Shown one piece after another: positions 15,539 through 45,055 of a stretch of DNA of 53,295 nt; position 1 is the first letter of the stretch; each line of letters opens with the position of its first letter. The notes under the pieces are model-generated. The model worked only from the letters and a program-made list of their open reading frames with translations, was not told where the DNA came from and ran no database searches. The position numbers and the translations under genes were made by a program. The DNA is taken from positions 1 through 53,295 of the forward strand of contig JAFSVB010000183.1 in the NCBI GenBank assembly GCA_017450325.1, given 5' to 3'. Source of the stretch: Bacilli bacterium. Its GTDB lineage: Bacteria > Bacillota_I > Bacilli_A > RFN20 > CAG-826.

Positions 15539-16123
15539 ATGGACGAAGTCATTGTCGCAAAAAACAAGAAGTTCATCGTCGAGACGGTCAAGGCGAAACA
15601 CCCGGACCACACGACCTATATTTGCACGTGGTCCAATCGGAAATATTTGCTTCGCACCTTCGTCACGGGCTTCGATCAAGCGCTTAAGGATTACAAGACC
15701 TTGAAACGCGCCGGCATCAACATGGCCAAGGTTTGCTTCCACGATGATGAGAAGAAAATCATCGTCTTTGATTATTTCCCCGAGGACGATTGCCTTACCG
15801 CTCTTTCCAAAGGACCATTGCCCGATATTTACTTCGATGCGCTGTTCTCCCTTTATCGCTTCGCGCGGTTCTCGAAAGTCGCCCTTGATTGGGAGCCGCA
15901 GAACTTCATGCTACGCGGTAGCCAGATGTTCTACCTGCCGACCAAGTGGGCACCTTTGACAGAGGAGAACCCCCTCGAGAAAGAGGGCATCCGTACCTGG
16001 TATCTTGGAAAGGAAGGCCGTGGTCTATTGGCGCGCAAAGGCTACGATATTTCGGGCCTTCCGTCTTTTGAGGACAACGTCGTGAATAAGTCCATTGTTT
16101 TATCGACCGTTCGTTATTGGTGA
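15539..16123 (+). CDS. Hypothetical protein with weak protein-kinase-like features
   Basis: Track ORF 15485..16123 (TTG start); the first ATG is at 15539. IVFDYFPEDD and ALDWEPQNFML loosely resemble the hinge and catalytic-loop regions of small RIO/Kdo-like kinases. Its stop overlaps the tgt start (TGATG). Confidence 0.45.
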   Translation: MDEVIVAKNKKFIVETVKAKHPDHTTYICTWSNRKYLLRTFVTGFDQALKDYKTLKRAGINMAKVCFHDDEKKIIVFDYFPEDDCLTALSKGPLPDIYFDALFSLYRFARFSKVALDWEPQNFMLRGSQMFYLPTKWAPLTEENPLEKEGIRTWYLGKEGRGLLARKGYDISGLPSFEDNVVNKSIVLSTVRYW

Positions 16124-17250
16124 TGAGCAAGTCCTTTGGTCTAGAAATCCTTCACATCGATAAGACTACCGGCGCCCGGTATGGTCTTTTGCATACTCCC
16201 CACGGAACCGTCGAGGTCCCGATGTTCATGCCCGTTGGCACCAACGCCACGTTGAAGATGCTTTCGCCTGAGCAAGTCGCCGCCTGCGGTTCGGGAGTGG
16301 TGCTCGCCAATATCTACCATCTCCATATCCGTCCAGGCGAAAAAATCGTGCAAAACGCGGGCGGTTTGCATGAATTTATGAATTATCATGGCCCGATCCT
16401 CACCGATTCAGGCGGCTTCCAGGTATTCTCTTTAGCGAGCAGAAGGAAGATCACCGAAGAAGGCGTGACCTTCCAAAACGAGATCGACGGCCGGCGAGAG
16501 TTCTTCTCGCCTGAGGAAGCGATTCGCATCGAGGAGGCCCTTGGTGCGGATATCATCATGAGCTTCGACGAATGCATCCCTTATCCCGTCACGAAGGAAT
16601 ATGCCGCGCGTTCCACCGAGCGGACGTTGCGCTGGGCAAAACGCGGGCTTGAAGCCAAGACCAGGGACGACCAAGCGCTTTTTGGCATCGTCCAAGGGGG
16701 CGCGTTCCGCGAATTGCGCGAGCATGCCGCCAAAGAGCTCGCCACGATGCCCTTCGAGGGGTATTCCATCGGTGGCACTTCCATCGGGGAGCCCAAAGAA
16801 GTCTGCTTTGAAATGATTCAGGACGCCATTCGTTTCCTTCCCGCGAATAAGCCCCGTTACCTCATGGGCGTTGGCTCCATCGACTACATCCTCGAAGGCA
16901 TCACCCATGGCGTCGATATGTTCGACTGCGTCTTGCCAACCCGCCTCGCCCGCCATGGAGCGCTCTTGACGCGCCATGGCCGCATCAACATTCAGCGCAA
17001 GGAATACGAAGAGGACTACACGCCGATTGAAGAAGATTGCGACTGCTATGCCTGCCAGCACTATACCAAGGCATATCTGCGCCACCTTTACAAGGCCAAG
17101 GAAGGCTTTGGCCAGACCCTGAATTCCATCCATAACATCCGCTTTCTCATCCGCCTTTGCGAAGAGGCGCGCGTTGCCATTCGCGAGGACCGTTTCGCGG
17201 AATTTAAGGCAGACGTGTATGCGAAATTCGGAGATAAGAGAGGATTCTGA
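16123..17250 (+). CDS. tgt: tRNA-guanine transglycosylase (queuine tRNA-ribosyltransferase)
   Basis: [30 protein letters not shown] and the zinc motif [17 protein letters not shown]. Possible starts are TTG 16117, GTG 16120 and ATG 16123; I chose the ATG. Confidence 0.95.
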
Positions 17251-18299
17251 TGGATATCAATTTGTTCGATTTCTACCTTCCTGAGGAGCAGATTGCCCAA
17301 ACTCCTCTGAAGGCCCGCGATATGGCGAAGCTCATGGTCATCGACCGCGAGCACCAAACCTTGGAGCACAAAGTCTTCTACGACTTGCTCGACTATGTTC
17401 GCCCAGGCGATGTCTTTGTCCGCAACAACACCAAAGTCATCCCCGCGAGGCTTCTCGGCGTAAAAGAGGCCACCAAAGGCAAGGTCGAGGTTTTATTGCT
17501 TCACGAAGTTCCGGAAGAAGGGGAGGACGTGTGGGAATGCCTCGTCGGCTCCGCGAAATCGGTCCGCGTCGGCAGCCGCTGCGTCTTTGGCGAAGGCAAG
17601 CTCATCGCCGAATGCACGGCCGTCTATGACGAAGGCATCCGCCATATGCGCTTCCATTACGAAGGAATCTTCCTCGAAGTCCTTGATCAGCTTGGCGTCA
17701 TGCCATTGCCGCCATATATCAAGGAGCAGTGTGAGGATAAAAACGACTACCAGACCGTTTATGCGCGCGTCCCTGGCTCCGTCGCCGCCCCGACCGCGGG
17801 CTTCCATTTCACCGAAGAGCTCTTCGAGAAAATGAAGGCCAAAGGCGCGGAGATTCTCGATGTCACCCTCAATATCGGCCTAGGCACTTTCCGCCCCGTC
17901 AAAGTGCAGGATACCAAAGACCATGTCATGCACGAAGAAACCTACACGATGGACGAATATACCGCCTCACGTCTGAATCTCGCGAAAAAAGAGGGGCGCA
18001 GGATCATCACGATCGGCACGACCTCGGTCCGAACGCTGGAATCCATCTATGGCAAATACGGAGAGTTCCGTCCTGAATCCAGCGCGACCAGCATCTTCAT
18101 TTCCCCCGGCTATGAATTCGGCGCCGTCGACGCGATGGTCACCAATTTCCATCTGCCGAAGTCGACTTTGGTCATGCTCGTGAGCGCCTTCATGGGACGT
18201 GAATGGACGCTTCATTGCTATGAAGAGGCCGTCCGCTGCAAGTATCGATTCTTCTCGTTCGGAGACGCGATGTTCATTTATGGAGATAAAAGAAAATAA
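17250..18299 (+). CDS. queA: S-adenosylmethionine:tRNA ribosyltransferase-isomerase
   Basis: [21 protein letters not shown]...[25 protein letters not shown] and [10 protein letters not shown]. 1-nt TGATG overlap with tgt. Confidence 0.95.
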
Positions 18300-18954
18300 G
18301 CCCAAAACGAAGGTGAATTATCAGGATATTTGTGAGAAAATCGTCGCAAATCTCCCACAAAATCCAAAACCAAGGCTTTTGCTTCACGCTTGCTGCGGAC
18401 CCTGTTCTTGCTATCCGTTGACCTATCTATGCCCGCTATTCGACGTGACGATTTACTACGCCAATTCCAACATCTACCCCAAGCAGGAATACGACCATCG
18501 CCTCGCGACGCTTCGAGAATTGCTCGCGGATCTAAAGCGCGACCGTGGCTTTGACATCCACCTCATCGTCCCGCCTTATGACAACGAGGGATACATGAAG
18601 CCGCTCCTCCCGCTGAAGGATGAGCCAGAAGGAGGCAAGCGCTGCTTCCTTTGCTATACCATGCGCATGGAGGAAGCCTATCGTTATGCTGCGGAGCAAG
18701 GCTATGACTATTTCACGACCGTCATGACCGTCTCCCGTCAAAAGGATTCCCAAAAGTTCAATGAAATCGGTAAGGCCCTTTCCGCCAAATATCCTTCTGT
18801 CTCTTATCTTTTCAGCGACTTCAAGAAGAACAAGGGTCAGGAAATCGGAACGTCCATCCGCAAGCAATACGACCTTTATAACCAGGATTATTGCGGCTGC
18901 CAAATCAGCTATGAAGAGGCGCTTATCCGCAGGGAAAGGAGCGCCAAACCATGA
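18280..18954 (+). CDS. queH: Epoxyqueuosine reductase QueH (DUF208 type)
   Basis: [44 protein letters not shown] and DYCGC. The track ORF (18199) was trimmed to ATG 18280, which overlaps the queA 3' end by 20 nt. Confidence 0.85.
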
Positions 18955-33521: not shown

Positions 33522-34526
33522 ATGGCAAATAAAGCCGAAAACAAAGTCGAAGAGATCAAACTCCCCAACCCGTTCGAACCTGTGAGGATCGGCATCGTCG
33601 TCAACGACGAGACTGAGAACTATGCGAAAATCGTCGCCAGCCCGCTTGAAAGGGGCTTCGGCATCACCCTTGGCAACGCGCTTCGCCGCGTCTTGCTAAG
33701 CGCTCTCCCCGGCGCCTCCGTGGTCGCCGTCCAAATCGAGGGCGCCCGTCACGAATTCACCGCTCTTAAGGGCGTTGAGGAAGACGTCACCGCGATCATC
33801 CTCAACCTCAAGGAACTCGTTCTCAAGATCGACGACAACTCTTCCGACCTCAAGCGCATCGAAGTCGACGTCAAGGGACCCTGCGTCCTCAAAGCCGGCG
33901 ACCTCGAGCTCCCCGCCTTGGTCTCCTGCTGCAATCCCGACCTCGAGATTGCGCACCTCAATGCGGATGCGCACCTCGTCATGACGATCTTCGCCGCCAA
34001 TGGCCGTGGATACGTCACCGCCGAGGCCAACAAGTCCGAGCGCCGCATCGATACCGTCGGCGTCATCACCACCGACTCCAACTACTCGCCGGTCGTCAAA
34101 GTCGCCTATAGCGTCGAGCCGACCCGCGTCCTTCACGATTCGAAGTTCGATGAGCTCACCCTCGAAGTCACCACCAATGGGTCCGTCAAGCCGCACGAAG
34201 CCGTCGCCCTTGCCGCCCAATTGCTGATCTCGCACTTCCAGCAGTTCATCACCCTCGAAGAGAAAGTCCAGGGCATCCGCCTCGTCAAAGAGGAGGTCCG
34301 CACCGAGGACAACAAGTTCCAGAACATGTTCATCGAGGAACTCGACCTCAGCGTCCGTTCCAATAACTGCCTGAAGAGGGCGGGAATCACCACCGTGTTG
34401 GAACTCACCCAAAAGACCGAGGAGGAAATGATGAAAGTCCGCAACCTCGGCAAGAAATCGCTCAAGGAAGTCAAAGAGAAACTCGCGGCCCACGGCCTAC
34501 ACTTCCGCGATTATGTAGGAGAATAA
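33522..34526 (+). CDS. rpoA: DNA-directed RNA polymerase subunit alpha
   Basis: GFGITLGNALRRVLLSALPGASV, and the C-terminal domain IEELDLSVRSNNCLKRAGITTVLELT. Confidence 0.97.
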   Translation: MANKAENKVEEIKLPNPFEPVRIGIVVNDETENYAKIVASPLERGFGITLGNALRRVLLSALPGASVVAVQIEGARHEFTALKGVEEDVTAIILNLKELVLKIDDNSSDLKRIEVDVKGPCVLKAGDLELPALVSCCNPDLEIAHLNADAHLVMTIFAANGRGYVTAEANKSERRIDTVGVITTDSNYSPVVKVAYSVEPTRVLHDSKFDELTLEVTTNGSVKPHEAVALAAQLLISHFQQFITLEEKVQGIRLVKEEVRTEDNKFQNMFIEELDLSVRSNNCLKRAGITTVLELTQKTEEEMMKVRNLGKKSLKEVKEKLAAHGLHFRDYVGE

Positions 34527-34529
34527 ACC

Positions 34530-34913
34530 ATGGCTGCACAAGGTAGAAAGAACGTTCATGGCAAGGCTGGCGTCCGCTTCAAGACCGGCTACACCGCCTC
34601 CAAGAACAAAGCGATGCTCCGCAACGTCGTGACCGACCTCATCGTCCACGAAGAAGTCAAGGTCACCAGCGGTGTCACCAAAGAGCTCAAGAAGCTCGCC
34701 GACCACATGATCACCCTCGCGAAGAGGAACGACCTCCATGCCCGTCGTCTCGCGGCGCAGACCGTCCGCTCCGAAGAAGCCCTCAAAAAGCTCTTCGCCG
34801 AACTCGGCCCCCGCATGGCGAACCGCAATGGCGGCTACACCCGTTCCTTCAAGCTCGGCGAACGTCGTGGCGACGCGGCGGAAGTCACGCTCGTCCGTTG
34901 GTCCGATCGCTAA
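34530..34913 (+). CDS. rplQ: 50S ribosomal protein L17
   Basis: LRNVVTDLIVHEEVKVTSGVTKELKKLADHMITLAK...NRNGGYTRSFKLGERRGDAAE. Confidence 0.96.
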   Translation: MAAQGRKNVHGKAGVRFKTGYTASKNKAMLRNVVTDLIVHEEVKVTSGVTKELKKLADHMITLAKRNDLHARRLAAQTVRSEEALKKLFAELGPRMANRNGGYTRSFKLGERRGDAAEVTLVRWSDR

Positions 34914-34934
34914 TTCGATTCGACATACTCGAAT

Positions 34935-34958
34935 AGGCGTCTCCTGTAGGCGCCTTTT
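34935..34958 (+). terminator. Weak candidate terminator after rplQ
   Basis: AGGCG...CGCCT 5-bp stem plus an inner CC/GG pair, followed by TTTTC. It is short and imperfect, so read-through into the next gene is plausible. Confidence 0.35.
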
Positions 34959-35103
34959 CTCATGCCATTTTCAAAAGGAGTGGGGTTTTGCGAGGATATT
35001 CCGATATTTACGGTTTCTCTTTCGCAGTGCGATAAACGACAACGACGAACAACCCGTGCGGATGCGTTATAAAAACGATAAAATGATGGTTGCTTAACGC
35101 GGG

Positions 35104-35134
35104 GGATATCAATCCAACTCCGACGACGATATCC
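35104..35134. repeat. Perfect 7-bp inverted repeat GGATATC-N17-GATATCC upstream of the TIR-NACHT gene
   Basis: GGATATC at 35104-35110 and GATATCC at 35128-35134. It ends 13 nt before the AGGAG RBS (35147-35151). Confidence 0.5.
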
Positions 35135-35156
35135 TCGAAAATTGTTAGGAGCATTC

Positions 35157-38012
35157 ATGATCAACGTCTTTATCAGCTATGGACATAACGACTATGACCA
35201 CGTCGCGCGCCGCATCGTGGAGGATCTAAGGGCGCGGGGCGACCTCGATGTTTTCTTCGACGTCGATTGCCTTGAGCGCGACGATTGGGAACAACTCATC
35301 ACCCAGGCCATCGAACGGTGCGATTATTTCGTCTTCTGCGTGAGCCAAAAATCCATCAGCCGCGACGGATATTGTCTCAATGAATTGTCGCGGGCTTGCG
35401 AGCTTAAGAAGACCTGCATCCCCTTGATGCTCGATGAGTCTTTCGTCCCCCTTTCCATTACGCGCCTGCAGCGGATTTTCTTCAATCGCTGCTGCAGCCT
35501 CGATAAGACCATCATCGAGGAAGTCTACGAGCCGAGCCTGCAGAAACTCATCAAGATCGTCACGGGCCAGGAAACACTTGGCTTCTATAACAAAGACATC
35601 GTCATCGAGGACCAACTCCAGACCTTCGACCCCTATGAAATCGTTCAGAATTCTCTTGATTTCGAAGGGCGCGACGCCTTCTTCAAGGACTTCGAGGAAT
35701 GGCTTAATAATCCAAGCGCCCTCCCGTTATATTTACTCGAAGCCGCTCCTGGCGTCGGCAAGACGGCGATGGCTTCGGCTTTGGCTACGCGCTATACCGC
35801 TTCGGTCGCCGGCATCCATTTCTGCGTCCATAATAACGCCGCGAAGACCAACCCCAAGAAAATCATCCTTTCGCTCGCTTGCCAGCTTGCTTATCGCTCC
35901 CCTGATTACCAAGAGACCCTGGCGGATATCCTCAAGAAAGAAGGGGGAGGCGAAGAGGGGGCGAAACGCCTATTCGAAATCTTCATCATTGAGCCATGTC
36001 GCAAAATTAAGTTCGATTCTGCACAGATTTTCGTCATCGACGGCTTGGATGAAGCGGTGGCGAATGGCAAGAACGAACTCGCGGAGATCATCGTCGCGAG
36101 CCAAGGCGCGCTTCCTTCTTGGCTACGCTTCCTCGTCACCTCCAGGCCCGAAGAAGATGTGCGCGGCTATTTCCAGGCATGCCACCGTTATGCGATGGAA
36201 GAATCTAGCGCCGAGAATAACGCCGACATCCGTCGTTTCTACGATAAGGCCTTTCAGTCTTATCACCCCGATGAGAAGTCCATGCAACTGCTCATGGAAA
36301 AGACCCATGGCTCATTTCTTTACGCCAGCGTCATCGTCAAATCGGTGAAGGCGAGGGAACTAGACATCCATAACGTCGAGAGTTTTCCAAACGGCATCTA
36401 TTCCTACTACAAGATGTGGTTCCATCGCATCTTTGATGACGGGCGGATTCCCTATGAAAAAGTCCGCTCCATCTTGTCGTTATTAAGCGTCGTCCAAGCG
36501 CCTCCAGATGTGTCCTTCCTCGCCGATGCGGCCTCGATGGAAGAAAAAGACGCCTATCGTTATGTCGATGCGCTTTCTTCTTTCTTGCGCGTGCAAAACG
36601 GCCTCGTCCGCCCACGTCATAAATCCATCATGGATTGGCTGACCACGCCGTCAATCTGCCCGAGCGAGTATCTCGTTTTGCCTAACGACGGCTATAAACT
36701 TCTTTACGCCTATATCAAAAAAGTCCGCGAGGCGGGCCGCGGCTGGAAGACCAATTACTATGTCATCCACGAATATAGCCGCTGCCTCCGCAACCTCAAA
36801 CTCTACGACGAACTTTGCTCGGTGATGCAGGATAGCAAGTACCTGCTCTCTTGCCTGAAGTCTCCTTTCTATAACTTATATGAAGGACTAGAGGAATACA
36901 TGATTAGCCTCGCTTGTCTCTATGCGGTCGACGAGGACTATTGCTTCGACGTCTACGATTCGGAGTGTTTTGCCTCAATCCTAGGCTCCTACCGCATGAA
37001 AATCTATAACGCGGGCTATTTCCTCGAGCTCCGCACCTGCGGCTTTGAGGATTATCTCTCCGAGAAATACGGCAGCAAAATCGGCGACAACATCGACTAT
37101 GAAATCGGCGTCGTCCATTTCTTCTATATCTCGTTGAACTTCCAAAAGGCGTCCAAGCGCCTTGCCGCGCTTGTGGCGAAGCACCCCTTAGACACCCTCG
37201 ACCTCGACCAACGCTCCGAGATTGAGCGCATGATGCTTCTTACTTACCGCAAGGAAGCGTTATTTGGGCAGATGGAAGAGGTGGCCCCCGCTGCCATCGC
37301 GGATGCGCGCGCTTCCAATAACGCATTCGAGGAATCCTTGGATTATCTCACGATGTCCAAGGTCTATTGCCGCGAACTCAAGAAGAAAGAATCCTTCGAA
37401 GCGGCGGAGGAAGCGGTGCGGATCCTTTCCGAGCAAATCGAGGCGGAGACGGACGAAAGCAATACCCAGATGGGCGACCATCTCTTCCTCGCCGAGGATT
37501 ATCGCGTCTATGCGGACGCGGCGATTTGGCATGGAGAATACGACCTTGCGGCGAACCTTCTTGGCAAGGCGCAGGCCATCTATACGCTCTATCACACGGT
37601 GGATCGTTATTATCCGCGTTTCCTCTATACGTCGCTTTTCTTGGAGATCGCTCGTCATGGCGAGACCAAGCGGATTGAAGAACTTCGCACGAAGCTCGAG
37701 AAAGTCCTTAGCAGCAGCAAAGATAAATACGATAAAGCACAGTTCCTATTCTTAGACGCGCTTTATTATTTCTTAGAGGGCAAGAACAATCCGGAATCGC
37801 TTCAAAAAGTGGAGCCGCGGCTAAAGCAAGCCATCGCCTTCGACAAAGACATCAGCGTGCCCCTAGAGGCCCTCGAGGCAAAATGCCTGATGAACCTCTA
37901 TGACGAAGCGTGTGACCGTCCCGCCCGATTTAACGACAAACATAACGAATATACGGATGTCTGGATTGCCTACGTCGAGCAAAAGATCCGGGAATGGAGG
38001 CAAAATCGATGA
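35157..38012 (+). CDS. TIR-NACHT-helical repeat STAND NTPase (bacterial NLR-like; candidate anti-phage defence protein)
   Basis: The track ORF begins at TTG 35142; ATG 35157 lies 5 nt after AGGAG. TIR_2-like N-terminus VFISYGHNDYDHVARRIVEDL...DVFFDVDCLERDDWEQLITQAIERCDYFVFCVSQKSISRDGYCLNELSRA, with putative catalytic Glu76 (GAA 35382-35384). NACHT motifs: Walker A EAAPGVGKTAMA (Lys202, 35760-35762), Walker B IFVIDGLDEA, and signature LVTSRPEE. The C-terminal ~500 aa are helical and TPR-like (for example AEDYRVYADAAIWHGEYDLAANLLGKAQAIY). Confidence 0.85.
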   Translation: MINVFISYGHNDYDHVARRIVEDLRARGDLDVFFDVDCLERDDWEQLITQAIERCDYFVFCVSQKSISRDGYCLNELSRACELKKTCIPLMLDESFVPLSITRLQRIFFNRCCSLDKTIIEEVYEPSLQKLIKIVTGQETLGFYNKDIVIEDQLQTFDPYEIVQNSLDFEGRDAFFKDFEEWLNNPSALPLYLLEAAPGVGKTAMASALATRYTASVAGIHFCVHNNAAKTNPKKIILSLACQLAYRSPDYQETLADILKKEGGGEEGAKRLFEIFIIEPCRKIKFDSAQIFVIDGLDEAVANGKNELAEIIVASQGALPSWLRFLVTSRPEEDVRGYFQACHRYAMEESSAENNADIRRFYDKAFQSYHPDEKSMQLLMEKTHGSFLYASVIVKSVKARELDIHNVESFPNGIYSYYKMWFHRIFDDGRIPYEKVRSILSLLSVVQAPPDVSFLADAASMEEKDAYRYVDALSSFLRVQNGLVRPRHKSIMDWLTTPSICPSEYLVLPNDGYKLLYAYIKKVREAGRGWKTNYYVIHEYSRCLRNLKLYDELCSVMQDSKYLLSCLKSPFYNLYEGLEEYMISLACLYAVDEDYCFDVYDSECFASILGSYRMKIYNAGYFLELRTCGFEDYLSEKYGSKIGDNIDYEIGVVHFFYISLNFQKASKRLAALVAKHPLDTLDLDQRSEIERMMLLTYRKEALFGQMEEVAPAAIADARASNNAFEESLDYLTMSKVYCRELKKKESFEAAEEAVRILSEQIEAETDESNTQMGDHLFLAEDYRVYADAAIWHGEYDLAANLLGKAQAIYTLYHTVDRYYPRFLYTSLFLEIARHGETKRIEELRTKLEKVLSSSKDKYDKAQFLFLDALYYFLEGKNNPESLQKVEPRLKQAIAFDKDISVPLEALEAKCLMNLYDEACDRPARFNDKHNEYTDVWIAYVEQKIREWRQNR

Positions 38013-38797
38013 ACGAACGCATAAAACCCTTCCTTTTTGAGTCCTATGAAAAGGCGAAGATAATCCTCTTGGGACTATCCTCGGAAGCGGTGTGCCATAA
38101 AAGCGCGAACGACCTCCTCACCAAGGCCGATTTGGCGTTAAACGACTTCTTCATCCACGCGATTCAGGAAGCCTTCCCCGAGGCTTGCATCATCGCCGAG
38201 GAGAGCGAAAACGGCACCTTGACCGATGCTTTGACGTTCATCGTCGACCCGCTTGATGGGACGTGCAATTTCTCGCGTGGCGTGAAGATGCATGGCATCC
38301 AAATCGCGGTGATGGAGCAAAAAGAATGCGTGGCCTCGTTGATCGGGCTCCCGCATTTTGATTTGGTCTATTACGCGGAAAAAGGAAAAGGCGCTTACCG
38401 CAATGGCGAGCGGATTTTCCTTGATAAAAACATCGCGCACGAAGATGGCATCCTTTCGTTAAGCGACTTCTATCACGATGAGAAAGATATCGCCTTTGAG
38501 GATCAATATCGCCTTGTTTCTTCCTTGCAGGACGACTTCCTAAAGACCCGCTTATACGGAGCTTCTTGCTATGACTTCGCCGCATTATCCGAGAGCCAAT
38601 CGCAGGCATATATTTGCTATTACCGTTGCATCTGGGACATCGCCCCGGGCTTATTGCTCGCTTTAGAAGCGGGGGCGGTGGCGAAGCGTCTAAATGGCGA
38701 GCCATATCAATATGGCGATCAATCCATCGTTGTCGCGAACTGCGCGGACACATTGGAGCATATCCTGAAAAAGGCCAAACCTTTCCTGAGGAAATAA
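38009..38797 (+). CDS. Inositol monophosphatase / CysQ / FBPase-superfamily phosphatase, translationally coupled to the TIR-NACHT gene
   Basis: ATG 38009 overlaps the upstream TGA (ATGA); an in-frame ATG also exists at 37994. Motifs: IIAEESENG, FIVDPLDGTCNF, and CIWDIAPGLLLALEAGA (WDxAxGxxxxxEAGx). Confidence 0.85.
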   Translation: MNERIKPFLFESYEKAKIILLGLSSEAVCHKSANDLLTKADLALNDFFIHAIQEAFPEACIIAEESENGTLTDALTFIVDPLDGTCNFSRGVKMHGIQIAVMEQKECVASLIGLPHFDLVYYAEKGKGAYRNGERIFLDKNIAHEDGILSLSDFYHDEKDIAFEDQYRLVSSLQDDFLKTRLYGASCYDFAALSESQSQAYICYYRCIWDIAPGLLLALEAGAVAKRLNGEPYQYGDQSIVVANCADTLEHILKKAKPFLRK

Positions 38798-38839
38798 AGT
38801 AGACAATATAAAATTGATGGCCGTTTTGCGGTGGAATTT

Positions 38840-39306
38840 TTAGATTGGGCAAGAAGGGATAGGAAACTCCCTTCTCTCATAATGCGTCAGGTCATCCAGA
38901 AGGAACGGCAGGGCGAAATGAGGCAAGGAACGATAGAAGGAACCAATACCAAAATTGTTCGCCATGATCTTATAGCATGTGTAGTGGTGGTAGGGCGTCG
39001 TATTCTCGACGAGGCTTTTGATAGAACCGTTCGTGGACTTTGCCTCAAGTAGAGTAATGCCGTCCTTGGACTCGAGGACAAAGTCGATTTTTTATGCTTT
39101 AGGCTATTCGCGTAATAGTACACGCCATGGTTTTGGGGTTGGAGCGCGGAATGGCCATATTTAAATTCAAAAGACAAAAATGGTATTTTTTGAAAAGCCT
39201 GCCATCGTATCCTTTGGGGAAATGGTTTAAAGAACATAGAGGCAATATCCTCTATGGAACATGTTATGGGAAAAAGAAACGCAAAGGTCGCGCGAGATTT
39301 ATGCAA
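38840..39306 (-). pseudogene. Truncated, frameshifted remnant of a DUF4143/COG1373-type AAA ATPase gene (C-terminal third only)
   Basis: Reverse-strand translation gives ...SIEDIASMFFKPFPQR...NHGVYYYANSLKHKK. After a -1/+1 shift at an A6 run (about 39087-39092) it continues KIDFVLESKDGITLLEAKSTNGSIKSLVENT...LPHFALPFLLDDL, with the stop at 38842-38840. The YYY..(E)IDFVLE...EAKS block is typical of the restriction-endonuclease-like C-terminus of DUF4143 ATPases. There is no P-loop part and no intact start. Confidence 0.45.
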
Positions 39307-39514
39307 AGTGATTTTGGTATGAATTTTGCTTCATATTTCCAAAAATAATAGGGTTTTGCAGTATATATTTCGTTATTTAAAACGAAGGAGAAGAAGCGCT
39401 GAAAAGTTAACTATAGATAACATTCTTATAGCCATCAAAAAATGCTAGCGCACACATATGCGCGTTTATAAAATAGTCGCGTAACGCCACGAAAAGTGGC
39501 ACGGAGGTTTACGC

Positions 39515-39997
39515 ATGGCAATCAAGCCTGAAGTTGTGCAGGGTGTCAAAGACATTTGCGATTCGTACGCGAATGAGCCCTCGCCGCTGATGATGATCCT
39601 CTCCGCCGTCCAGAAGAAGTATGGCTACATTCCTCTGGAGGTGCAGCAGATCATCTCTGAAAAGACGGGCATCCCCGTCGCCGAGATCTATGGAGTAGTC
39701 ACCTTCTATTCCTTCTTCTCACTCAAACCCAAGGGTAAATATGTCTTGGGCATCTGCCTTGGTACCGCTTGCTACGTCAAGGGTTCCCAACAGGTCGTCG
39801 ATAAGTTCTCTTCTTTGCTCGGCATCCAGCCGGGCGAAACGACCAAAGACGGATTATTCACGATTGAAGCCATCCGCTGCATCGGCGCTTGCGCTCTTGC
39901 GCCGGCGATGTCGGTCAATGGCAAGGTCTTCCCGAAGGTCACCCCGGACCAGGTTGGCAAGATCATCGATGAATATCGCGCTCTGGAGGCTGCTTAA
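39515..39997 (+). CDS. NuoE-like [2Fe-2S] subunit of NAD(P)H-dependent/bifurcating [FeFe]-hydrogenase (HydC/HndA type)
   Basis: Thioredoxin-like ferredoxin motifs CLGTACYVKG and CIGACALAPAMSVNG. 160 aa. Confidence 0.9.
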   Translation: MAIKPEVVQGVKDICDSYANEPSPLMMILSAVQKKYGYIPLEVQQIISEKTGIPVAEIYGVVTFYSFFSLKPKGKYVLGICLGTACYVKGSQQVVDKFSSLLGIQPGETTKDGLFTIEAIRCIGACALAPAMSVNGKVFPKVTPDQVGKIIDEYRALEAA

Positions 39998-39999
39998 TC

Positions 40000-41913
40000 A
40001 TGGAAAGAATCACTTCTCCCTCGTGCTTAGAAAAGCACATCGGCGAATGTAGCGAAGCCCTCAAGGCCAAGCTCGAAGGCCAAGGCGGTAAGCGCGCGGT
40101 CGTCGTCTGCGGCGGCACGGGCTGCATCGCCAACAATTCCGTCGATATCGAAGAAGAACTCCGCAAGGAAATCAAGGCGCACGGACTTGAGGATCAGATT
40201 TCGCTCAACCACGTCGGTTGCTTCGGCTTCTGCTCCCAGGGTCCCTTCGTCAAGATCTTCCCGGAGGACACGCTCTACCGCGCCGTCAAGGTCTCCGACG
40301 TCAAAGCCATCGTCGAGAAGGACCTCATTGGCCATGAGATTTGCGAGAATCTCCTCTACGTCGACCCGACCACCAAAGAAAAGGTTCAGCGTCAGGACGA
40401 CATCAATTTCTACAAGAAACAAATCCGTATTGCCCTTCACGGCTGCTCCCTCATCAATCCGGACCTCCTCGAGGAAGCCCTTGGTTATGATGGATTCAAA
40501 GGCCTGAAGCGCGCGCTCACCACCATGACCCCGCAGGAAGTCATCGACGAAGTCCTTGCTTCTGGCATCCGTGGCCGTGGCGGCGGTGGATTCCCCACCG
40601 GCCGTAAGTGGCAGTTCGCCGCCAACATCAAGGCGGATCAGAAGTACGTGGTCTGCAACGGCGACGAGGGCGACCCCGGCGCGTTCATGGACCGTTCCAT
40701 CCTCGAAGGCAACCCCTTTGAGGTCATCGAAGGCATGATGATCGCCGGCTATGCGTTCGGCGCTTCCGAAGGCTACTTCTACGTCCGTGCCGAATACCCG
40801 ATTGCCGTCTCGCGTCTGCAGCGCGCCATCGAGGATATGGAAAAGGTCGGCCTGCTTGGCGACAACATCCTCGGTACCGATTTCTCCTTCCGTGCCCACA
40901 TCCGTTTGGGCGCCGGCGCGTTCGTCTGCGGCGAAGAAACCGCTCTTCTGAACTCCATCGAGGGCCAGCGCGGCATGCCTCGCCCCCGTCCGCCTTTCCC
41001 CGCCATCAAAGGTCTTTGGGGAAAGCCGACCTGCGTCAATAACGTCGAGACCTTGGCTCAGATCCCCTTCATCCTCCGCGAAGGGGCGGCTAAGTTCGCG
41101 TCCATTGGCACCGAAGGCTCCAAAGGCACCAAAGTCTTCGCCCTCGGCGGCAAAGTCAACAACGTCGGCCTCGTCGAGGTCCCGATGGGCACCACGCTCC
41201 GCGAGCTCATCTATGACATCGGCGGCGGCATCCCCGGCAACAAGAAATTCAAAGCCATTCAGACCGGCGGTCCTTCCGGCGGCTGCTTGACCGAGAAAGA
41301 CCTCGATACCCCGATCGACTACGACACCCTCGTGGCCCGTGGCTCGATGATGGGTTCTGGCGGCGCCATCGTCATGGACGAAGATAACTGCGCCGTCGAC
41401 GTCGCCCACTTCTACATGTCCTTCATCTGCGACGAATCCTGCGGTAAGTGCTCGCCCTGCCGTATCGGCACGAAGCGCCTCTATGAGATGCTCACCGACG
41501 TCACACAAGGCAAAGGCACCGAGAAGACCCTTGAGGATATGCGCGACCTCGCGACCGTCATCAAGAACGGCTCCCTCTGCGCCCTCGGCCAGACCGCGGC
41601 CAACCCGATTCTCTCGACGATGAACAACTTCCCCGAGGAATATCGCGCCCACGTCGTGGACAAGAAGTGCCCCGCCCACGTCTGCAAGAAGCTCATGGCC
41701 TACGTCATCGACAAGACGAAGTGCGTCGGCTGCACCCTTTGCTCCCGCAACTGCCCCGTCTCTTGCATCCACGTCACCGATGTCCCCGCCAAACCGATGG
41801 TTCCTGGCAAGGTCATCCCTGGCAAGTTCGCCCACGAAATCGACCAGAGCAAGTGCATTAAGTGCGGCTCTTGTATGTCCGGCTGCCGCTTTGGCGCCAT
41901 CGAGAAGAAATAA
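40000..41913 (+). CDS. NuoF-like flavoprotein subunit (HydB/HndC type) with N-terminal [2Fe-2S] and C-terminal 2x[4Fe-4S] domains
   Basis: VVVCGGTGC...CFGFCSQGP. GRGGGGFPTGRKW (FMN). CNGDEGDPGAF (NADH). ESCGKCSPCRIG (N3 cluster). CVGCTLCSRNCP and CIKCGSCMSGC. Confidence 0.92.
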   Translation: MERITSPSCLEKHIGECSEALKAKLEGQGGKRAVVVCGGTGCIANNSVDIEEELRKEIKAHGLEDQISLNHVGCFGFCSQGPFVKIFPEDTLYRAVKVSDVKAIVEKDLIGHEICENLLYVDPTTKEKVQRQDDINFYKKQIRIALHGCSLINPDLLEEALGYDGFKGLKRALTTMTPQEVIDEVLASGIRGRGGGGFPTGRKWQFAANIKADQKYVVCNGDEGDPGAFMDRSILEGNPFEVIEGMMIAGYAFGASEGYFYVRAEYPIAVSRLQRAIEDMEKVGLLGDNILGTDFSFRAHIRLGAGAFVCGEETALLNSIEGQRGMPRPRPPFPAIKGLWGKPTCVNNVETLAQIPFILREGAAKFASIGTEGSKGTKVFALGGKVNNVGLVEVPMGTTLRELIYDIGGGIPGNKKFKAIQTGGPSGGCLTEKDLDTPIDYDTLVARGSMMGSGGAIVMDEDNCAVDVAHFYMSFICDESCGKCSPCRIGTKRLYEMLTDVTQGKGTEKTLEDMRDLATVIKNGSLCALGQTAANPILSTMNNFPEEYRAHVVDKKCPAHVCKKLMAYVIDKTKCVGCTLCSRNCPVSCIHVTDVPAKPMVPGKVIPGKFAHEIDQSKCIKCGSCMSGCRFGAIEKK

Positions 41914-41927
41914 GGAGGGGATGAATC

Positions 41928-43739
41928 ATGGAAAACGTCGAAATGATCAATATCAAAATCGAAGGCAAAATCTATAGTGTCCCGAAGAACATGACCGTCC
42001 TCGAGGCGGCCCGCCTTTGCGGATACAACATCCCCACCCTCTGCTACTGGAACCATGGTCATAACTCCTTGGCTTCCTGCCGCGTCTGCTTGGTCGAAAT
42101 CGCGACCGCTCGCGGTGGCAAACTCTTCGCGTCCTGCGTCTATCCCGTCGCGGACATCCCCGCCGAGAAGGGCTTCGAAATCAAAATCTCGAGCCCCATG
42201 GCCGTCAAAGCGCGCCGCGCCTCGGTGGAACTCCTTCTTTCCAACCACTCCAAAGATTGCCAGACCTGCGTGAAGAACGGCCATTGCGAACTCCTTCACG
42301 TGGCCGGCGTCACCGGTGCCCGCGACAACGTCTTCGAAGGCGAAAAGACCGCGACCACCTATGACGAATGCGCCCCTGGCATCATCCGCGATACCTCCAA
42401 GTGCATCCTCTGCGGCCGCTGCATCGAGCGCTGCAAAGAAGCCCAGGGCATCGGCATCCTCGGCTTTGAGAAGCGTGGCTTCAACACCATCGTTGGCCCC
42501 GCTCAGAACGCTTCCTTCGCGAAGGTTCCTTGCCTCCAGTGCGGCCAGTGCATCAACGTCTGCCCGACCGGTGCGCTCTCCGAACACCGCGAAATCGACC
42601 TCGTCGACAAGGCGATGGCCGAAGGCAAATACGTCGTCGTCCAGACCGCTCCGGCCGTCCGCGCCGCCATCGCCGAGGAATTCGGCCATAAGATCGGCGA
42701 GCAAAACGGCACCGGCAGGATGGTCGCTGCGCTTCACCGCCTTGGCTTCTACCGCGTCTACGATACCAACTTCGGCGCGGACCTCACCATCATGGAAGAG
42801 GCGACCGAGTTGCTCCACCGTATCCAAGGCAAGGGCGTCCTCCCGCAGATCACCTCGTGCTCCCCGGGCTGGATCAACTACATGGAATTCTTCTATAGCG
42901 ACCTGATTCCGAACGTCTCCACCTGCAAGTCCCCGCACGAAATGGAAGGCGCGATCATCAAGTCCTATATGGCCGAAAAGCACGGCCTTAAGCCGGAAGA
43001 CATCTTTGTCGTCTCGGTCATGCCCTGCACCGCGAAGAAGTATGAAGCCGACCGTAAGCAGAACGCGGCGGTCAAGGGTCTCCCCGATGTGGACGCTGTC
43101 CTTACCACCCGCGAACTCGCGGTCATGATCAAGCGTGCCGGTATCCTTTGGGATCAGCTTCCTGAAGAGGAATTCGACCAAGATCTCCTCGGGCAATACT
43201 CCGGCGCTGGCGCCATCTTCGGCGTCACCGGCGGCGTCATGGAAGCGGCCCTTCGTACCGCGTACCATGCCCTCACCGGCGAAGAATACGGCCCCATCGA
43301 GTTCCACGAAGTCCGTGGCCTCGAGGCCGTCAAGGAAGCCACGATCGACATCAAAGGCACCGTCGTGAAAGTCGCGGTCACCTCGGGCATGAAGAACGCG
43401 AAGAAACTCCTCGATGACATCCGCGCGGGCAAGTCCGATTACACCTTCATCGAGATCATGTGCTGCCCCGGCGGCTGCATCAACGGCGGCGGACAACCCT
43501 TCGTCAAGCCGTCCATGCAGACCAACGAAGACCCCGACATCCTCGATACCTATCGTCAGAAGAGAGCCGCCGTTCTCTATAACATCGATAAGGAATTGCC
43601 GCTTCGTCAGTCCCATAACAACCCGGACATCATCAAGCTCTATGAGGACTTCCTCGGCGAGCCGTGCTCCGAGAAGTCGGAAGAACTCCTCCACACCACC
43701 TATGTGGCGGATCGTCCTTGCTACATCGACGAAGAATAA
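41928..43739 (+). CDS. hydA: [FeFe]-hydrogenase catalytic subunit HydA (M3-type with N-terminal 2Fe-2S and FeS domains)
   Basis: N-terminal IKIEGKIYSVPKNMTVLEAARLCGYNIPTLCY. CILCGRCIERC and CLQCGQCINVCP. H-cluster motifs TSCSPGW (variant of TSCCPxW), VMPCTAKKYE, and EIMCCPGGCINGGGQP. Confidence 0.92.
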   Translation: MENVEMINIKIEGKIYSVPKNMTVLEAARLCGYNIPTLCYWNHGHNSLASCRVCLVEIATARGGKLFASCVYPVADIPAEKGFEIKISSPMAVKARRASVELLLSNHSKDCQTCVKNGHCELLHVAGVTGARDNVFEGEKTATTYDECAPGIIRDTSKCILCGRCIERCKEAQGIGILGFEKRGFNTIVGPAQNASFAKVPCLQCGQCINVCPTGALSEHREIDLVDKAMAEGKYVVVQTAPAVRAAIAEEFGHKIGEQNGTGRMVAALHRLGFYRVYDTNFGADLTIMEEATELLHRIQGKGVLPQITSCSPGWINYMEFFYSDLIPNVSTCKSPHEMEGAIIKSYMAEKHGLKPEDIFVVSVMPCTAKKYEADRKQNAAVKGLPDVDAVLTTRELAVMIKRAGILWDQLPEEEFDQDLLGQYSGAGAIFGVTGGVMEAALRTAYHALTGEEYGPIEFHEVRGLEAVKEATIDIKGTVVKVAVTSGMKNAKKLLDDIRAGKSDYTFIEIMCCPGGCINGGGQPFVKPSMQTNEDPDILDTYRQKRAAVLYNIDKELPLRQSHNNPDIIKLYEDFLGEPCSEKSEELLHTTYVADRPCYIDEE

Positions 43740-43876: not shown

Positions 43877-45055
43877 TTAAAGAAGGATTGACCTTACTTT
43901 CTCCAACGTGGATTCTTCGATTTCGCAAGAGAGAAGGCAATTCTTGGCTTTTTCGGATAAAGTAGTTCCGGAAAAGGAATTGACGACGCCGGAAGCGCCG
44001 CTTGCCTTGGTGAGGTCCGTGAGATCTTTGTAAGTCGGGTCGCTGTCATAGGCGTTTGGGACGGCGATCAAACCGAAGTTAGAGAACATATAGTCATAAA
44101 AGAGGTCGATCTCATTCACGCCGAGGAATGCGTTGAGCAAATAAGCGATCATCCCCGTTCGGTCGGTTCCGATATTGCAATGGAAGTAGATGGGATAGTT
44201 CTCTTCGATGGCGAAGAGGTCGAACACCTGCTTTATTTGCTCTTTGCAGGCATTGATGTTGGCGGAGCCTCCGGTGGGGATGGGAATATAGTTCACCCCA
44301 TCGACCGCCGAGAAAAGTTCTTCTTCCGGAGGAAGGCCTGGATAGCCATTTCTTTGTAAGAGGCGCAGGTCGATCTCGGTTTTGATGCCAAGATCCTCCT
44401 GAAATACCTTTTCGCCTTCCTTGGTGATTTCCTTTTCAAAGGAATAGCCGAGATCTCCCCCATCTTTCGTCCAGCCTTCGGGATAGGAATTGTTCAATCT
44501 GGCCCCCCGATAGAGCAGACCTTGGCGGATTCTTTTGCCTCCGCCGACTTCCCAACCCCCGATATCGCGGACGTTGGTCACGCCATCGACGTCGAGATTC
44601 CTTGGGCCTACGCCAATCGTGGAGAAAGAAGAAACCGCGCTCTCCATTCCTCCTTGGCGCACCTTCCAATAATAAGTGGTCGCTAGTTTAAGGTTCGACA
44701 CTTCGACGTTTTCGCTTTCCGTTTGCAATCTTTTCGCCTTTTCAAAGGAGGGGTCTTCGCTTAAGAGGACTTCGAAGGAGCCCTCCTCTTGCGTGCTTTC
44801 CCAAGAAAGATTGAGGGGAACGGGCTTTGAGTTTTCGTGCTTCCCATCGGCGATCGAATGGTCGATTTCCTCGGGGATACCGCCATCAAGGTAATCTTTT
44901 TGGACCGGAGAATGGAAATCGACGATGCCGCTCACTTCATTCAAAACGATGGCATCATTGGCGGAAGGTTGGCTCGCCGATGAGGAAGAAGGGGCTTTCG
45001 CGCAGCTAGCGAATAGAAGCGGAATCAAAAAGATAAGGCAGCGTTTCGTTTTCAT
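43877..45055 (-). CDS. Lipoprotein: secreted PTP-like (Y_phosphatase3, CX5R) phosphatase with an N-terminal beta-rich domain
   Basis: Signal peptide and lipobox MKTKRCLIFLIPLLFASC. NVRDIGGWEVGGGKRIRQGLLYRGARLN, and active-site HCNIGTDRTG. Confidence 0.75.
   Translation of the reverse strand: MKTKRCLIFLIPLLFASCAKAPSSSSASQPSANDAIVLNEVSGIVDFHSPVQKDYLDGGIPEEIDHSIADGKHENSKPVPLNLSWESTQEEGSFEVLLSEDPSFEKAKRLQTESENVEVSNLKLATTYYWKVRQGGMESAVSSFSTIGVGPRNLDVDGVTNVRDIGGWEVGGGKRIRQGLLYRGARLNNSYPEGWTKDGGDLGYSFEKEITKEGEKVFQEDLGIKTEIDLRLLQRNGYPGLPPEEELFSAVDGVNYIPIPTGGSANINACKEQIKQVFDLFAIEENYPIYFHCNIGTDRTGMIAYLLNAFLGVNEIDLFYDYMFSNFGLIAVPNAYDSDPTYKDLTDLTKASGASGVVNSFSGTTLSEKAKNCLLSCEIEESTLEKVRSILL

Follow-up and report, generated by a model that had tools for sequence, protein, structure and literature searches.

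A TIR-NACHT gene and an inositol-monophosphatase-family gene paired as a mobile, putatively immune module of uncultured gut and rumen Firmicutes

We analysed a stretch of 53,295 nucleotides (nt) from a Bacilli bacterium (NCBI GenBank assembly GCA_017450325.1, contig JAFSVB010000183.1, GTDB lineage Bacteria; Bacillota_I; Bacilli_A; RFN20; CAG-826), which is called the window below. Its forward strand carries a cassette of two adjoining genes, one for a TIR-NACHT protein with a C-terminal solenoid and one for a phosphomonoesterase of the inositol monophosphatase (IMPase) family. Coordinates are those of the window unless they follow the handle of another locus (L).

35157..38012, + strand: TIR-NACHT-solenoid gene, STAND/NLR-like, 951 amino acids (aa), from Pfam, AlphaFold2 (AF2) and Foldseek
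38009..38797, + strand: gene of the IMPase-family phosphomonoesterase, 262 aa, from Pfam Inositol_P and the AF2 fold
37996..38012, + strand: coupling junction, with GGAGG at 37996-38000, the IMPase ATG at 38009 and the TIR-NACHT TGA at 38010-38012 (ATGA)

The longest open reading frame (ORF) of the IMPase, as read from the sequence, is 37994..38797 on the + strand (267 aa). An earlier note on this DNA had claimed that the stop codon of the first gene overlaps a start codon of the second, and the sequence confirmed it: TGA 38010-38012 and ATG 38009-38011 share ATGA, and another in-frame ATG is located at 37994. The downstream ATG is likely the true start, giving 262 aa, because GGAGG sits 8 nt upstream of it, because the ATG at 37994 overlaps this Shine-Dalgarno sequence, and because all of the homologues begin at the residue matching 38009. 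The TIR-NACHT gene starts at ATG 35157, preceded by AGGAG 5 nt upstream, and TTG 35142 is not the start. When 26 distinct homologous loci were compared, the junctions ranged from an 11-nt overlap to a 25-nt gap, and the start/stop overlap of 4 nt was present in 14 of them. The tight junction is not due to chance, since it is kept across these loci, and from its sequence the IMPase gene is predicted to be translationally coupled to the TIR-NACHT gene.

The conservation of the pairing was analysed with a profile of the clade against one genome per species, followed by tblastn of both window proteins on the loci. A locus was regarded as testable if it contained an IMPase of at least 42% identity with readable flanking DNA. 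A full-length TIR-NACHT homologue (31–97% identity) directly adjoined the IMPase gene on the same strand in 24 of 24 testable loci, whereas an adjacent TIR-NACHT gene was found in 0 of the 52 loci of more distant IMPases (Fisher p = 2.7e-20). The flanking genes of the pair fell into at least 15 unrelated context groups, including dnaA-gidA/TetR, ClpB/PTS, transketolase/nusB, MerR and PHP/PGI. The earlier note had proposed a co-occurrence check for its candidate two-gene system, and the two genes proved to be neighbours far above chance. The pairwise distances of the two proteins were also correlated (Mantel r = 0.81), and none of 5000 permutations reached this value. Even the most distant TIR-NACHT clade member, P0173, is paired. 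In an Anaeroplasma metagenome-assembled genome (MAG; L023:5899-9531) the order is reversed, with the IMPase gene first and the TIR-NACHT gene about 18 nt downstream; what is conserved is the adjacency and not one fixed gene order. The source MAGs are named by their submitters as Erysipelotrichaceae, Bacilli, Clostridia, Oscillospiraceae, Christensenellaceae, Lachnospiraceae and Anaeroplasma, and the cassette appears to be confined to uncultured gut and rumen Firmicutes. Comparison of these loci shows a two-gene module at window 35157-38797 that moves horizontally and whose genes are gained and lost together.

The exceptions to the pairing are orphan IMPases of one lineage (L007-9 and L091; 44–46% identity), whose genes are divergent from dnaG-rpoD. 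At L092 the same P0035 protein is located beside an insertion sequence element (rve transposase), on a contig that has hardly any DNA upstream.

L007:10001-10786, L091:6001-6783 and L092:55-837: orphan IMPase loci

In a neighbour-joining tree, drawn without support values, the orphans group next to the paired P0048, and they keep the active-site signature of the clade. A TIR-NACHT gene of the clade without an IMPase gene was not seen in about 35 loci, most of which had been reached through the IMPase and just two (P0173 and P0279) through TIR-NACHT or the metallo-beta-lactamase-fold (MBL) gene described below. No TIR-NACHT-IMPase fusion protein was present among the 120 homologues listed.

The IMPase-family protein retains a complete set of family residues, which map as follows.

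38198-38203, + strand: metal and catalytic residues E64/E65, invariant in the clade
38246-38263, + strand: DPLDGT, residues 80-85, invariant in the clade
38633-38638, + strand: W209-D210, invariant in the clade
38615-38617, + strand: C203, in the clade-specific pocket Y201-x-C203-x-Y205 seen in the alignment

Pfam PF00459 (Inositol_P) matched residues 35-260 with 141.6 bits against a cut-off of 27 (E = 4.3e-41), and the catalytic motifs that the earlier note had named, IIAEESENG, DPLDGTCNF and WDIAPGLLLALEAGA, were all found in the ORF. E64, E65, D80, P81, D83, G84, T85, W209 and D210 are invariant in 22 aligned clade members and in all of the 50+ clade sequences. The AF2 model (predicted local distance difference test score, pLDDT, 94.2; predicted template modelling score 0.92) has the five-layer alpha/beta sandwich by which the fold is recognised. 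Its template modelling (TM) score is 0.84–0.88 to TM1415, IMPA1 and SuhB, with 21–24% identity to solved structures, and about 0.8 to the dual IMPase/NADP phosphatases 4g61 and 5f24 (S. aureus) and to the 2′-AMP-bound SaIMPase-II 5dw8. A profile search of the Protein Data Bank with the clade gave 116 bits for IMPA1, 105 for SuhB and just 48 for CysQ. From these residues and this model, we infer that the clade IMPase is an active phosphomonoesterase.

The same protein did not reach the score of any named subfamily. The NCBIfam SuhB equivalog NF008027 scored 68.2 bits against a cut-off of 332, HisN 99.1 against 275, CysQ 75.9 against 228.8, FBPase/IMPase 75.7 against 264, and NADP phosphatase/NAD kinase 36 against 493. 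In the protein search, the IMPases form a tight clade at 40–96% identity, and the next relatives drop to about 33% or less. At the position aligned to E213 of human IMPA1, which we take to be the residue contacting the inositol hydroxyls, the window protein has C203; the clade has Cys, Thr or Ser there, within an invariant Y-x-[CTS]-x-Y motif, while distant IMPases keep Glu. With no equivalog cut-off reached and the inositol-binding Glu position replaced, the clade looks specialised, and its substrate is probably other than inositol-1-phosphate. In fold and in all metal and catalytic motifs the protein agrees with the dual IMPase/NADP(H) phosphatases and with IMPase/SuhB, but it differs from them in being accessory, in being tied to TIR-NACHT and in having Cys/Thr/Ser at the Glu213 position. 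No second IMPase match was found within the 53-kb window.

The TIR-NACHT protein has the following parts.

35157..35501, + strand: TIR domain, residues 1-115, GYCxNE invariant, with the putative catalytic Glu76 encoded at 35382-35384
35664..36680, + strand: NACHT NTPase module, about residues 170-508, from invariant columns and AF2 secondary structure
35751-35765, + strand: Walker A GxGKT, residues 199-203, from the alignment of 29 clade members
36039-36053, + strand: Walker B DxLDE, residues 295-299, from the same alignment
36681..38009, + strand: C-terminal all-alpha solenoid, residues 509-951, the presumed sensor, with helices only at residues 509-950 of the AF2 model

The Pfam matches were TIR_2 (66.7 bits, 3.5e-18) and NPHP3_N/NACHT (82.3 bits, 6.1e-23). 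In the alignment of 29 clade members, the invariant columns are F5, S7, Y8, G9, W44, G71, Y72, C73, N75 and E76 in the TIR domain, and G199, G201, K202, D295, L297, D298, E299, R330, H488 and K489 in the NACHT module, H488 being located in a winged-helix region. Glu76 of GYCxNE is taken here as the catalytic Glu of TIR NADases. The invariant residues of the solenoid include R613, Y617, R698, K699, E780, R783, D816, R817, Y818, R821 and Y824; in this alignment, the solenoid shows an unusual degree of conservation, many Arg, Lys and Tyr being invariant. The AF2 model (pLDDT 86.8) has the order TIR, linker, NTPase, winged-helix region and all-helical solenoid, and Foldseek matched it to Avs3, the STAND-TPR protein 6mfv, RPP1 and Apaf-1, and also to MalT (8bob). 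The solenoid is rare: phmmer against 1.84 billion representative proteins gave 53 matches at E <= 1e-3, nearly all with the same architecture. The clade is sharply bounded, with 53 clusters, all of 941–970 aa and with full-length matches, and beyond it only the TIR and NACHT parts match, in proteins with WD40 or TPR tails.

The protein has the same layout as the Avs and bNACHT proteins, namely an N-terminal TIR, a central NACHT P-loop NTPase whose Walker A and B motifs are intact, and helical repeats at the C-terminus as the sensor. It differs in that its solenoid is a rare private family and that its loci are located outside defence islands. The described Avs and bNACHT systems are, to our knowledge, single-gene or have other accessory proteins, none with an IMPase-fold phosphatase. 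PADLOC gave only domain-level partial matches, SAVED_TIR (4e-8), pAgo TIR (1e-6) and STAND_TPR (7e-5), and no full-length model; the best matches of the TIR domain were the TIR-SAVED and pAgo-associated TIR effector models. The ThsB match was weak (E = 0.0068), and an effector of the ThsA type (SIR2/SLOG or Macro), as in Thoeris, was not found in the island or in the homologous loci.

In this rumen Erysipelotrichaceae-like bacterium, the cassette is located between rpoA-rplQ (33522-34913) and a hydABC-type hydrogenase operon (39515-43739). The features of this site, in the window and in its relatives, which were obtained via the L17 protein, are as follows.

34907..39482, no strand assigned: variable island between rplQ (34530-34913) and the hydC/nuoE-like gene (39515-39997), holding the cassette and a degenerate tail
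34935..34955, + strand: terminator-like hairpin after rplQ, from a consensus scan (8-bp stem with 5 GC pairs, then the T-run TTTCTCATGC; pattern match only)
38798..39482, − strand: AT-rich island tail with a degenerate AAA_14-type ATPase remnant; the counterpart in L001 is a 93-aa AAA_14 fragment
L104:7379-7645: rplQ/hydC site, 268 nt, empty, flanks 72–78% identical in aa to the window
L108: rplQ/hydC site, about 540 nt, empty
L102 (7409-10258), L103, L105 and L116: rplQ/hydC site with LemA and DUF3137 genes
L096:7385-12890: rplQ/hydC site, 5.5 kb, with a thiol-activated-cytolysin-like gene, two genes of no assigned function and an ATPase_2/DUF234 gene

The island borders were set from the comparison with L096, whose flanks are 94–95% (aa) and 87–88% (nt) identical to the window. 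The blastn homology stops at window 34906 and restarts at 39483, and the island is therefore 34907-39482. The predicted hairpin would separate the ribosomal operon from the cassette. The GC content is 49–54% in the cassette, 41–43% in the tail and 57–62% in the flanks. The IMPase and TIR-NACHT genes were both absent from the rplQ/hydC site in L096, L102, L103, L104, L105, L108 and L116, and this intergenic site is a cargo hotspot in the lineage. The earlier note had named as a refuting case an IMPase orthologue at the same locus in relatives lacking TIR-NACHT; none was found, the sites of the relatives being empty or occupied by other cargo. As the IMPase gene never occurs by itself at this site, it is no housekeeping suhB.

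Among public genomes, the closest is an uncultured Erysipelotrichaceae MAG from the rumen (L014, 96% identity). The comparison with the near-identical strain L001 (window 35157-38797 against L001:7149-10789) gave nt identities of 98.8–99.8% in the flanks, 91–98% in the cassette and 70–78%, with gaps, in the tail. The synonymous divergence (dS) was 0.24–0.28 in both cassette genes against 0.02 in rpoA, about tenfold, a contrast that the strong codon bias of rpoA may inflate. This divergence suggests an allele exchange by recombination or a faster evolution of the island. The ratio of nonsynonymous to synonymous divergence (dN/dS) was 0.065 for TIR-NACHT and 0.072 for the IMPase gene, values that place both genes under purifying selection. 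The reverse frames of the tail are interrupted by stops. The tail ORF 38887-39306 (− strand, 139 aa) was considered as a part of the system and rejected: it has no Pfam match and broken frames, and is poorly conserved even in the approximately 99%-identical strain. The island tail is probably outside the system.

A distant relative of the sensor carries a phosphatase in its own chain.

L180:2043-5699, also L181 and L182: P0361, 1218 aa, seen on 7 contigs

The NACHT and solenoid parts of P0361 are homologous to the window protein (BLASTP 3e-43 over residues 194-874) with the signature motifs in common, and a TIR domain was not detected by Pfam or PADLOC in its N-terminal 250 aa or so. The C-terminus is a fused His_Phos_1 domain (4e-39), which is not homologous to the IMPase; thus, a non-homologous phosphatase holds the position of the IMPase gene. 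The best NCBIfam match of this domain, below the cut-off, was the alpha-ribazole-5′-phosphate phosphatase CobC, a ribotide phosphatase. No PADLOC model matched P0361. The stop codon of P0361 is overlapped by 4 nt by a 48-aa ORF. In L003, the second gene upstream of the pair is a His_Phos_1 gene; a relationship to the fused domain of P0361 was considered and rejected, as tblastn gave no match.

A search for a universal third gene of the cassette was negative, as the immediate neighbours are diverse and an MBL gene alone recurs.

L018, L030, L031, L034, L037, L044 and L176: loci with the MBL gene; the three-gene operon of L176 is L176:6001-10302

This gene encodes about 225 aa with HxHxDH and abuts the start of TIR-NACHT in these 7 loci, which belong to four unrelated contexts; at L176 it overlaps the TIR-NACHT start by 4 nt. 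It occurs upstream of TIR-NACHT in about a quarter of the cassettes and is not present in the window. At least 8 more MBL clusters were linked to cassette clusters by the coinciding sizes of their source contigs only. In two members scanned, the best Pfam match was PF23023 (Anti-Pycsar_Apyc1) with 43.5 and 46 bits against a cut-off of 50, and the Lactamase_B_2 match was above its cut-off; the precomputed Pfam annotation gives PF23023 for the whole MBL clade. No PADLOC model matched the gene. It shares HxHxDH and the best Pfam family with Apyc1, the phage anti-Pycsar MBL-fold cyclic-nucleotide phosphodiesterase, but is host-encoded and located inside a putative defence operon. The other immediate neighbours of the pair include carbonic anhydrase, PTS EIIC, ZIP transporter, ATP-grasp, HAD, NYN, PHP and shikimate-kinase-like genes. 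On the same strand as the pair, a GFO_IDH_MocA oxidoreductase gene, of a family that includes inositol dehydrogenases, is located 40 nt downstream (L003:10820-11788), a PHP-family phosphoesterase gene 60 nt upstream (L094:5230-5940), and a HAD phosphatase ORF upstream in L032. These three are non-recurrent and may be chance neighbours.

A description of the TIR-NACHT and IMPase pairing was not found anywhere, and neither gene matched a named complete system. The claim of the earlier note that the pair is undescribed thus stood: PADLOC has no model for the IMPase, and no paper in the searchable literature, subscription-only papers being outside its scope, combines inositol monophosphatase with phage defence. 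The co-mentions of inositol monophosphatase and TIR domain in that literature were irrelevant, and a systematic STAND survey of 2026 (PMC13581612) says nothing of inositol or phosphatase.

The pairing suggests that the phosphatase controls or assists an NAD-cleaving immune sensor, and we infer the immune function from the TIR-STAND architecture together with the accessory, hotspot behaviour. Tentatively, and rating it a little below an even chance, we favour the reading that the phosphatase, catalytically active and an obligate partner of the sensor, clears a phosphorylated small molecule and gates TIR-NACHT as a safety catch. The mechanism would follow that of other TIR-STANDs: once the solenoid binds a trigger, the NACHT module would be freed to oligomerise and would unite the TIR domains, so that NAD(P)+ is cleaved and the infection aborted. 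The phosphatase, made at the C-terminal end of the sensor, would probably bind it and would continuously hydrolyse a phosphorylated small molecule that either activates TIR-NACHT or arises from its leaky activity, thereby setting the activation threshold and resetting the system. The likely substrate would be a monoester of the nucleotide or NAD pathway, such as nicotinamide mononucleotide (NMN) or another ribotide, a 2′/3′-phosphonucleotide, or a 2′-phospho-ADP-ribose (2′-phospho-ADPR)/NADP-type compound. In the three-gene variants, the Apyc1-like phosphodiesterase would first open the cyclic or diester form of the same compound.

Several observations lead to the safety-catch reading. It is the phosphatase activity, and not the IMPase fold, that is conserved beside the NACHT-sensor module, even where a TIR domain is not detectable. 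The conservation of the sensor is unusual, and many of its invariant residues are basic or aromatic. To break down a cyclic or diester nucleotide in full takes a phosphodiesterase and then a monoesterase. The balance tips somewhat towards regulation or clearance tied to the NACHT-sensor module, and away from pure chemistry on the TIR product, because P0361 has a fused phosphatase without a detectable TIR domain, and because orphan IMPases exist while an orphan TIR-NACHT was not seen. Operon-encoded hydrolytic or buffering partners are known elsewhere: the ring nucleases of type III CRISPR and the DtcB buffer of Detocs prevent autoimmunity and reset the system. The analogy is functional only, as these act by phosphodiester ring cleavage or phospho-relay and the cassette enzyme would act by phosphomonoester hydrolysis; those systems also keep signal synthase and effector apart, an arrangement that is not evident for the TIR-NACHT and IMPase pair.

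Other observations weigh against the safety catch. The asymmetry between orphan and obligate partner rests on one orphan lineage, and the loci were mostly retrieved by the IMPase. P0361 is a single distant cluster of 24% identity, and a NAD-targeting effector may have gone undetected in its N-terminal domain, in which case P0361 would fit a co-effector role of the phosphatase just as well. The MBL gene occurs alone too (L177 and L178). The putative regulator gene would be downstream, unlike the usual antitoxin-first order. An anti-phage function would follow solely from the domain architecture; the cassette neighbours are mostly housekeeping genes and not defence islands, with no known defence genes nearby. 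Relatives of TIR-NACHT and IMPase were not found in IMG/VR viral contigs, and TIR-NACHT was not found in PLSDB plasmids; the IMPase matches in GenBank phage records were just 26–31% identical, in unannotated records.

A more specific form of the safety catch, which we regard as unlikely, is that the solenoid is the receptor for a small phosphorylated ribotide (NMN-like or ADPR-phosphate-like) that phage infection generates or unmasks, and that its cognate phosphatase sets the firing threshold. This phosphatase would be the IMPase in the window and the fused histidine phosphatase in P0361, and in the three-gene variants the Apyc1-like phosphodiesterase would act before it. SARM1 is an ARM-SAM-TIR NADase that is restrained by an alpha-solenoid and gated by the NMN/NAD+ ratio, with NMNAT2 as the ligand-removing safety. 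Under the favoured reading, the likeness would lie in a solenoid-gated TIR NADase, a phosphorylated ribotide ligand and an enzyme that removes the ligand. SARM1 differs in that it has no NACHT module, its sequence relation to TIR-NACHT is limited to the TIR domain, and its ligand-removing enzyme is genetically unlinked. If the receptor reading is true, a ribotide-gated TIR-NACHT would be a bacterial counterpart of the metabolite-gated SARM1, and the first NLR-type receptor with a ligand-clearing enzyme in the same operon.

The strongest rival, possible though on balance doubtful, is that the phosphatase is a co-effector which widens or locks in the dinucleotide depletion after TIR activation. 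This was the main idea of the earlier note. It could do so by turning NADP(H) into TIR substrate, by dephosphorylating 2′-phospho-ADPR, or by destroying NMN, phosphoribosyl pyrophosphate or ADPR-pyrophosphate, the phosphorylated intermediates on which phages rely to rebuild NAD+. The TIR Glu of the catalytic type is intact, and the domain resembles the effector TIRs of PADLOC with NAD(P)ase function; the IMPase model superposes on 4g61, 5f24 and 5dw8 at a TM score of about 0.8, and the CobC match of the P0361 phosphatase, below its cut-off, is to a ribotide phosphatase. However, the equivalog of NADP phosphatase/NAD kinase scored 36 bits against 493, and NAD+-derived ADPR and cyclic ADPR isomers bear no phosphomonoester. 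An enhancer should be dispensable, yet no TIR-NACHT of the clade without the phosphatase was seen; hundreds of other TIR-NACHTs with WD40/TPR sensors show no fused phosphatase in their Pfam domain annotation, and P0361 keeps a phosphatase without a detectable TIR domain. The strict co-occurrence and the relative with no detectable TIR domain are explained less well by a co-effector than by the safety catch. The co-effector proposal is timely, because phosphatases decide the outcome of NAD+ depletion in the arms race between phage and host: ADPR-1′′-P is the product of aRES, and NARP1 is restored by a phosphatase from phage (Osterman et al. 2026, bioRxiv 10.64898/2026.01.28.702374). That work shows that a phosphate monoester carried by an ADPR-type product can, together with a dedicated phosphatase, settle the outcome of NAD+-depletion immunity; in aRES/NARP1-Adpp, however, the phosphatase is a phage-encoded counter-defence, and the NAD+ cleaver is a RES domain and not a TIR-STAND.

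An improbable alternative is a non-immune module of regulation or metabolism in gut Firmicutes, for example a STAND of the MalT type sensing a metabolite that the phosphatase handles, with the TIR domain used for signalling or NAD homeostasis. The overwhelmingly housekeeping neighbours, the missing link to mobile elements or phages in IMG/VR, PLSDB and GenBank phage records, the strongly conserved sensor and the Foldseek match to MalT (8bob) would all fit it. It fits poorly with the patchy accessory distribution in a variable hotspot, where near-identical strains or relatives have empty sites or other cargo, with the cassette GC content below that of the flanks, and with the cassette dS of 0.24–0.28 against 0.02 in rpoA. 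A DNA-binding output domain was also not found in the protein, whose output is a TIR domain with a Glu of the catalytic type.

It is quite improbable that the phosphatase is a guardee, decoy or structural subunit, the solenoid sensing a phage perturbation of a SuhB-like IMPase whose enzymatic activity is secondary. The clade is closest by profile and fold to IMPA1/SuhB, including the SuhB of the rrn antitermination complex (6tqn and 6ib8), and translational coupling would favour co-assembly; a bacterial NACHT sensing a host protein has a precedent in bNACHT25/DnaJ (PMC12169576). All of the catalytic residues, however, are invariant across 42–96% identity at a dN/dS of 0.07, and the SuhB equivalog scored 68 bits against 332. 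The different phosphatase fold at the same position in P0361 argues that the activity matters and not the SuhB shape.

That a housekeeping suhB-like gene came to adjoin an inserted TIR-NACHT gene by chance is hardly credible: the IMPase looks ordinary among core genes in the window alone, but this was refuted by the 24/24 against 0/52 loci, the at least 15 contexts and the empty sites without both genes, and a housekeeping suhB at a fixed locus was ruled out by the empty or alternative-cargo sites and the sub-threshold equivalog scores.

Bacteria, plants and animals share TIR-STAND/NLR-like proteins as a central, conserved arm of their immunity, and in bacteria few mechanisms are known that gate these proteins or keep TIR activity safe. 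The identity of the substrate would probably reveal a small molecule that controls an NLR-like sensor, or a part of NAD(P)-directed killing. Candidate immune modules of this kind can hide among housekeeping genes by a ribosomal operon, where they are missed by defence-island searches.

Other observations were made in the window. Its synteny with the near-identical strain breaks a second time after hydA (window about 43740 against L001:15640), which marks a second variable region. Here the window has a Y_phosphatase3 gene (43877-45055, − strand) with esterase and glycosidase genes, and L001 has ABC transporter, HAD and cysS genes. At 5193-6266 (+ strand), 29 kb from the cassette, a 357-aa protein is a fusion of Y_phosphatase3 (DSP-PTPase-like) and NUDIX domains, so that this genome joins a phosphatase with a nucleotide-diphosphate hydrolase a further time. 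Three consecutive queuosine genes (tgt, queA and queH) at 16117-18954 (+ strand), upstream of the ribosomal protein cluster, are ordinary housekeeping genes.

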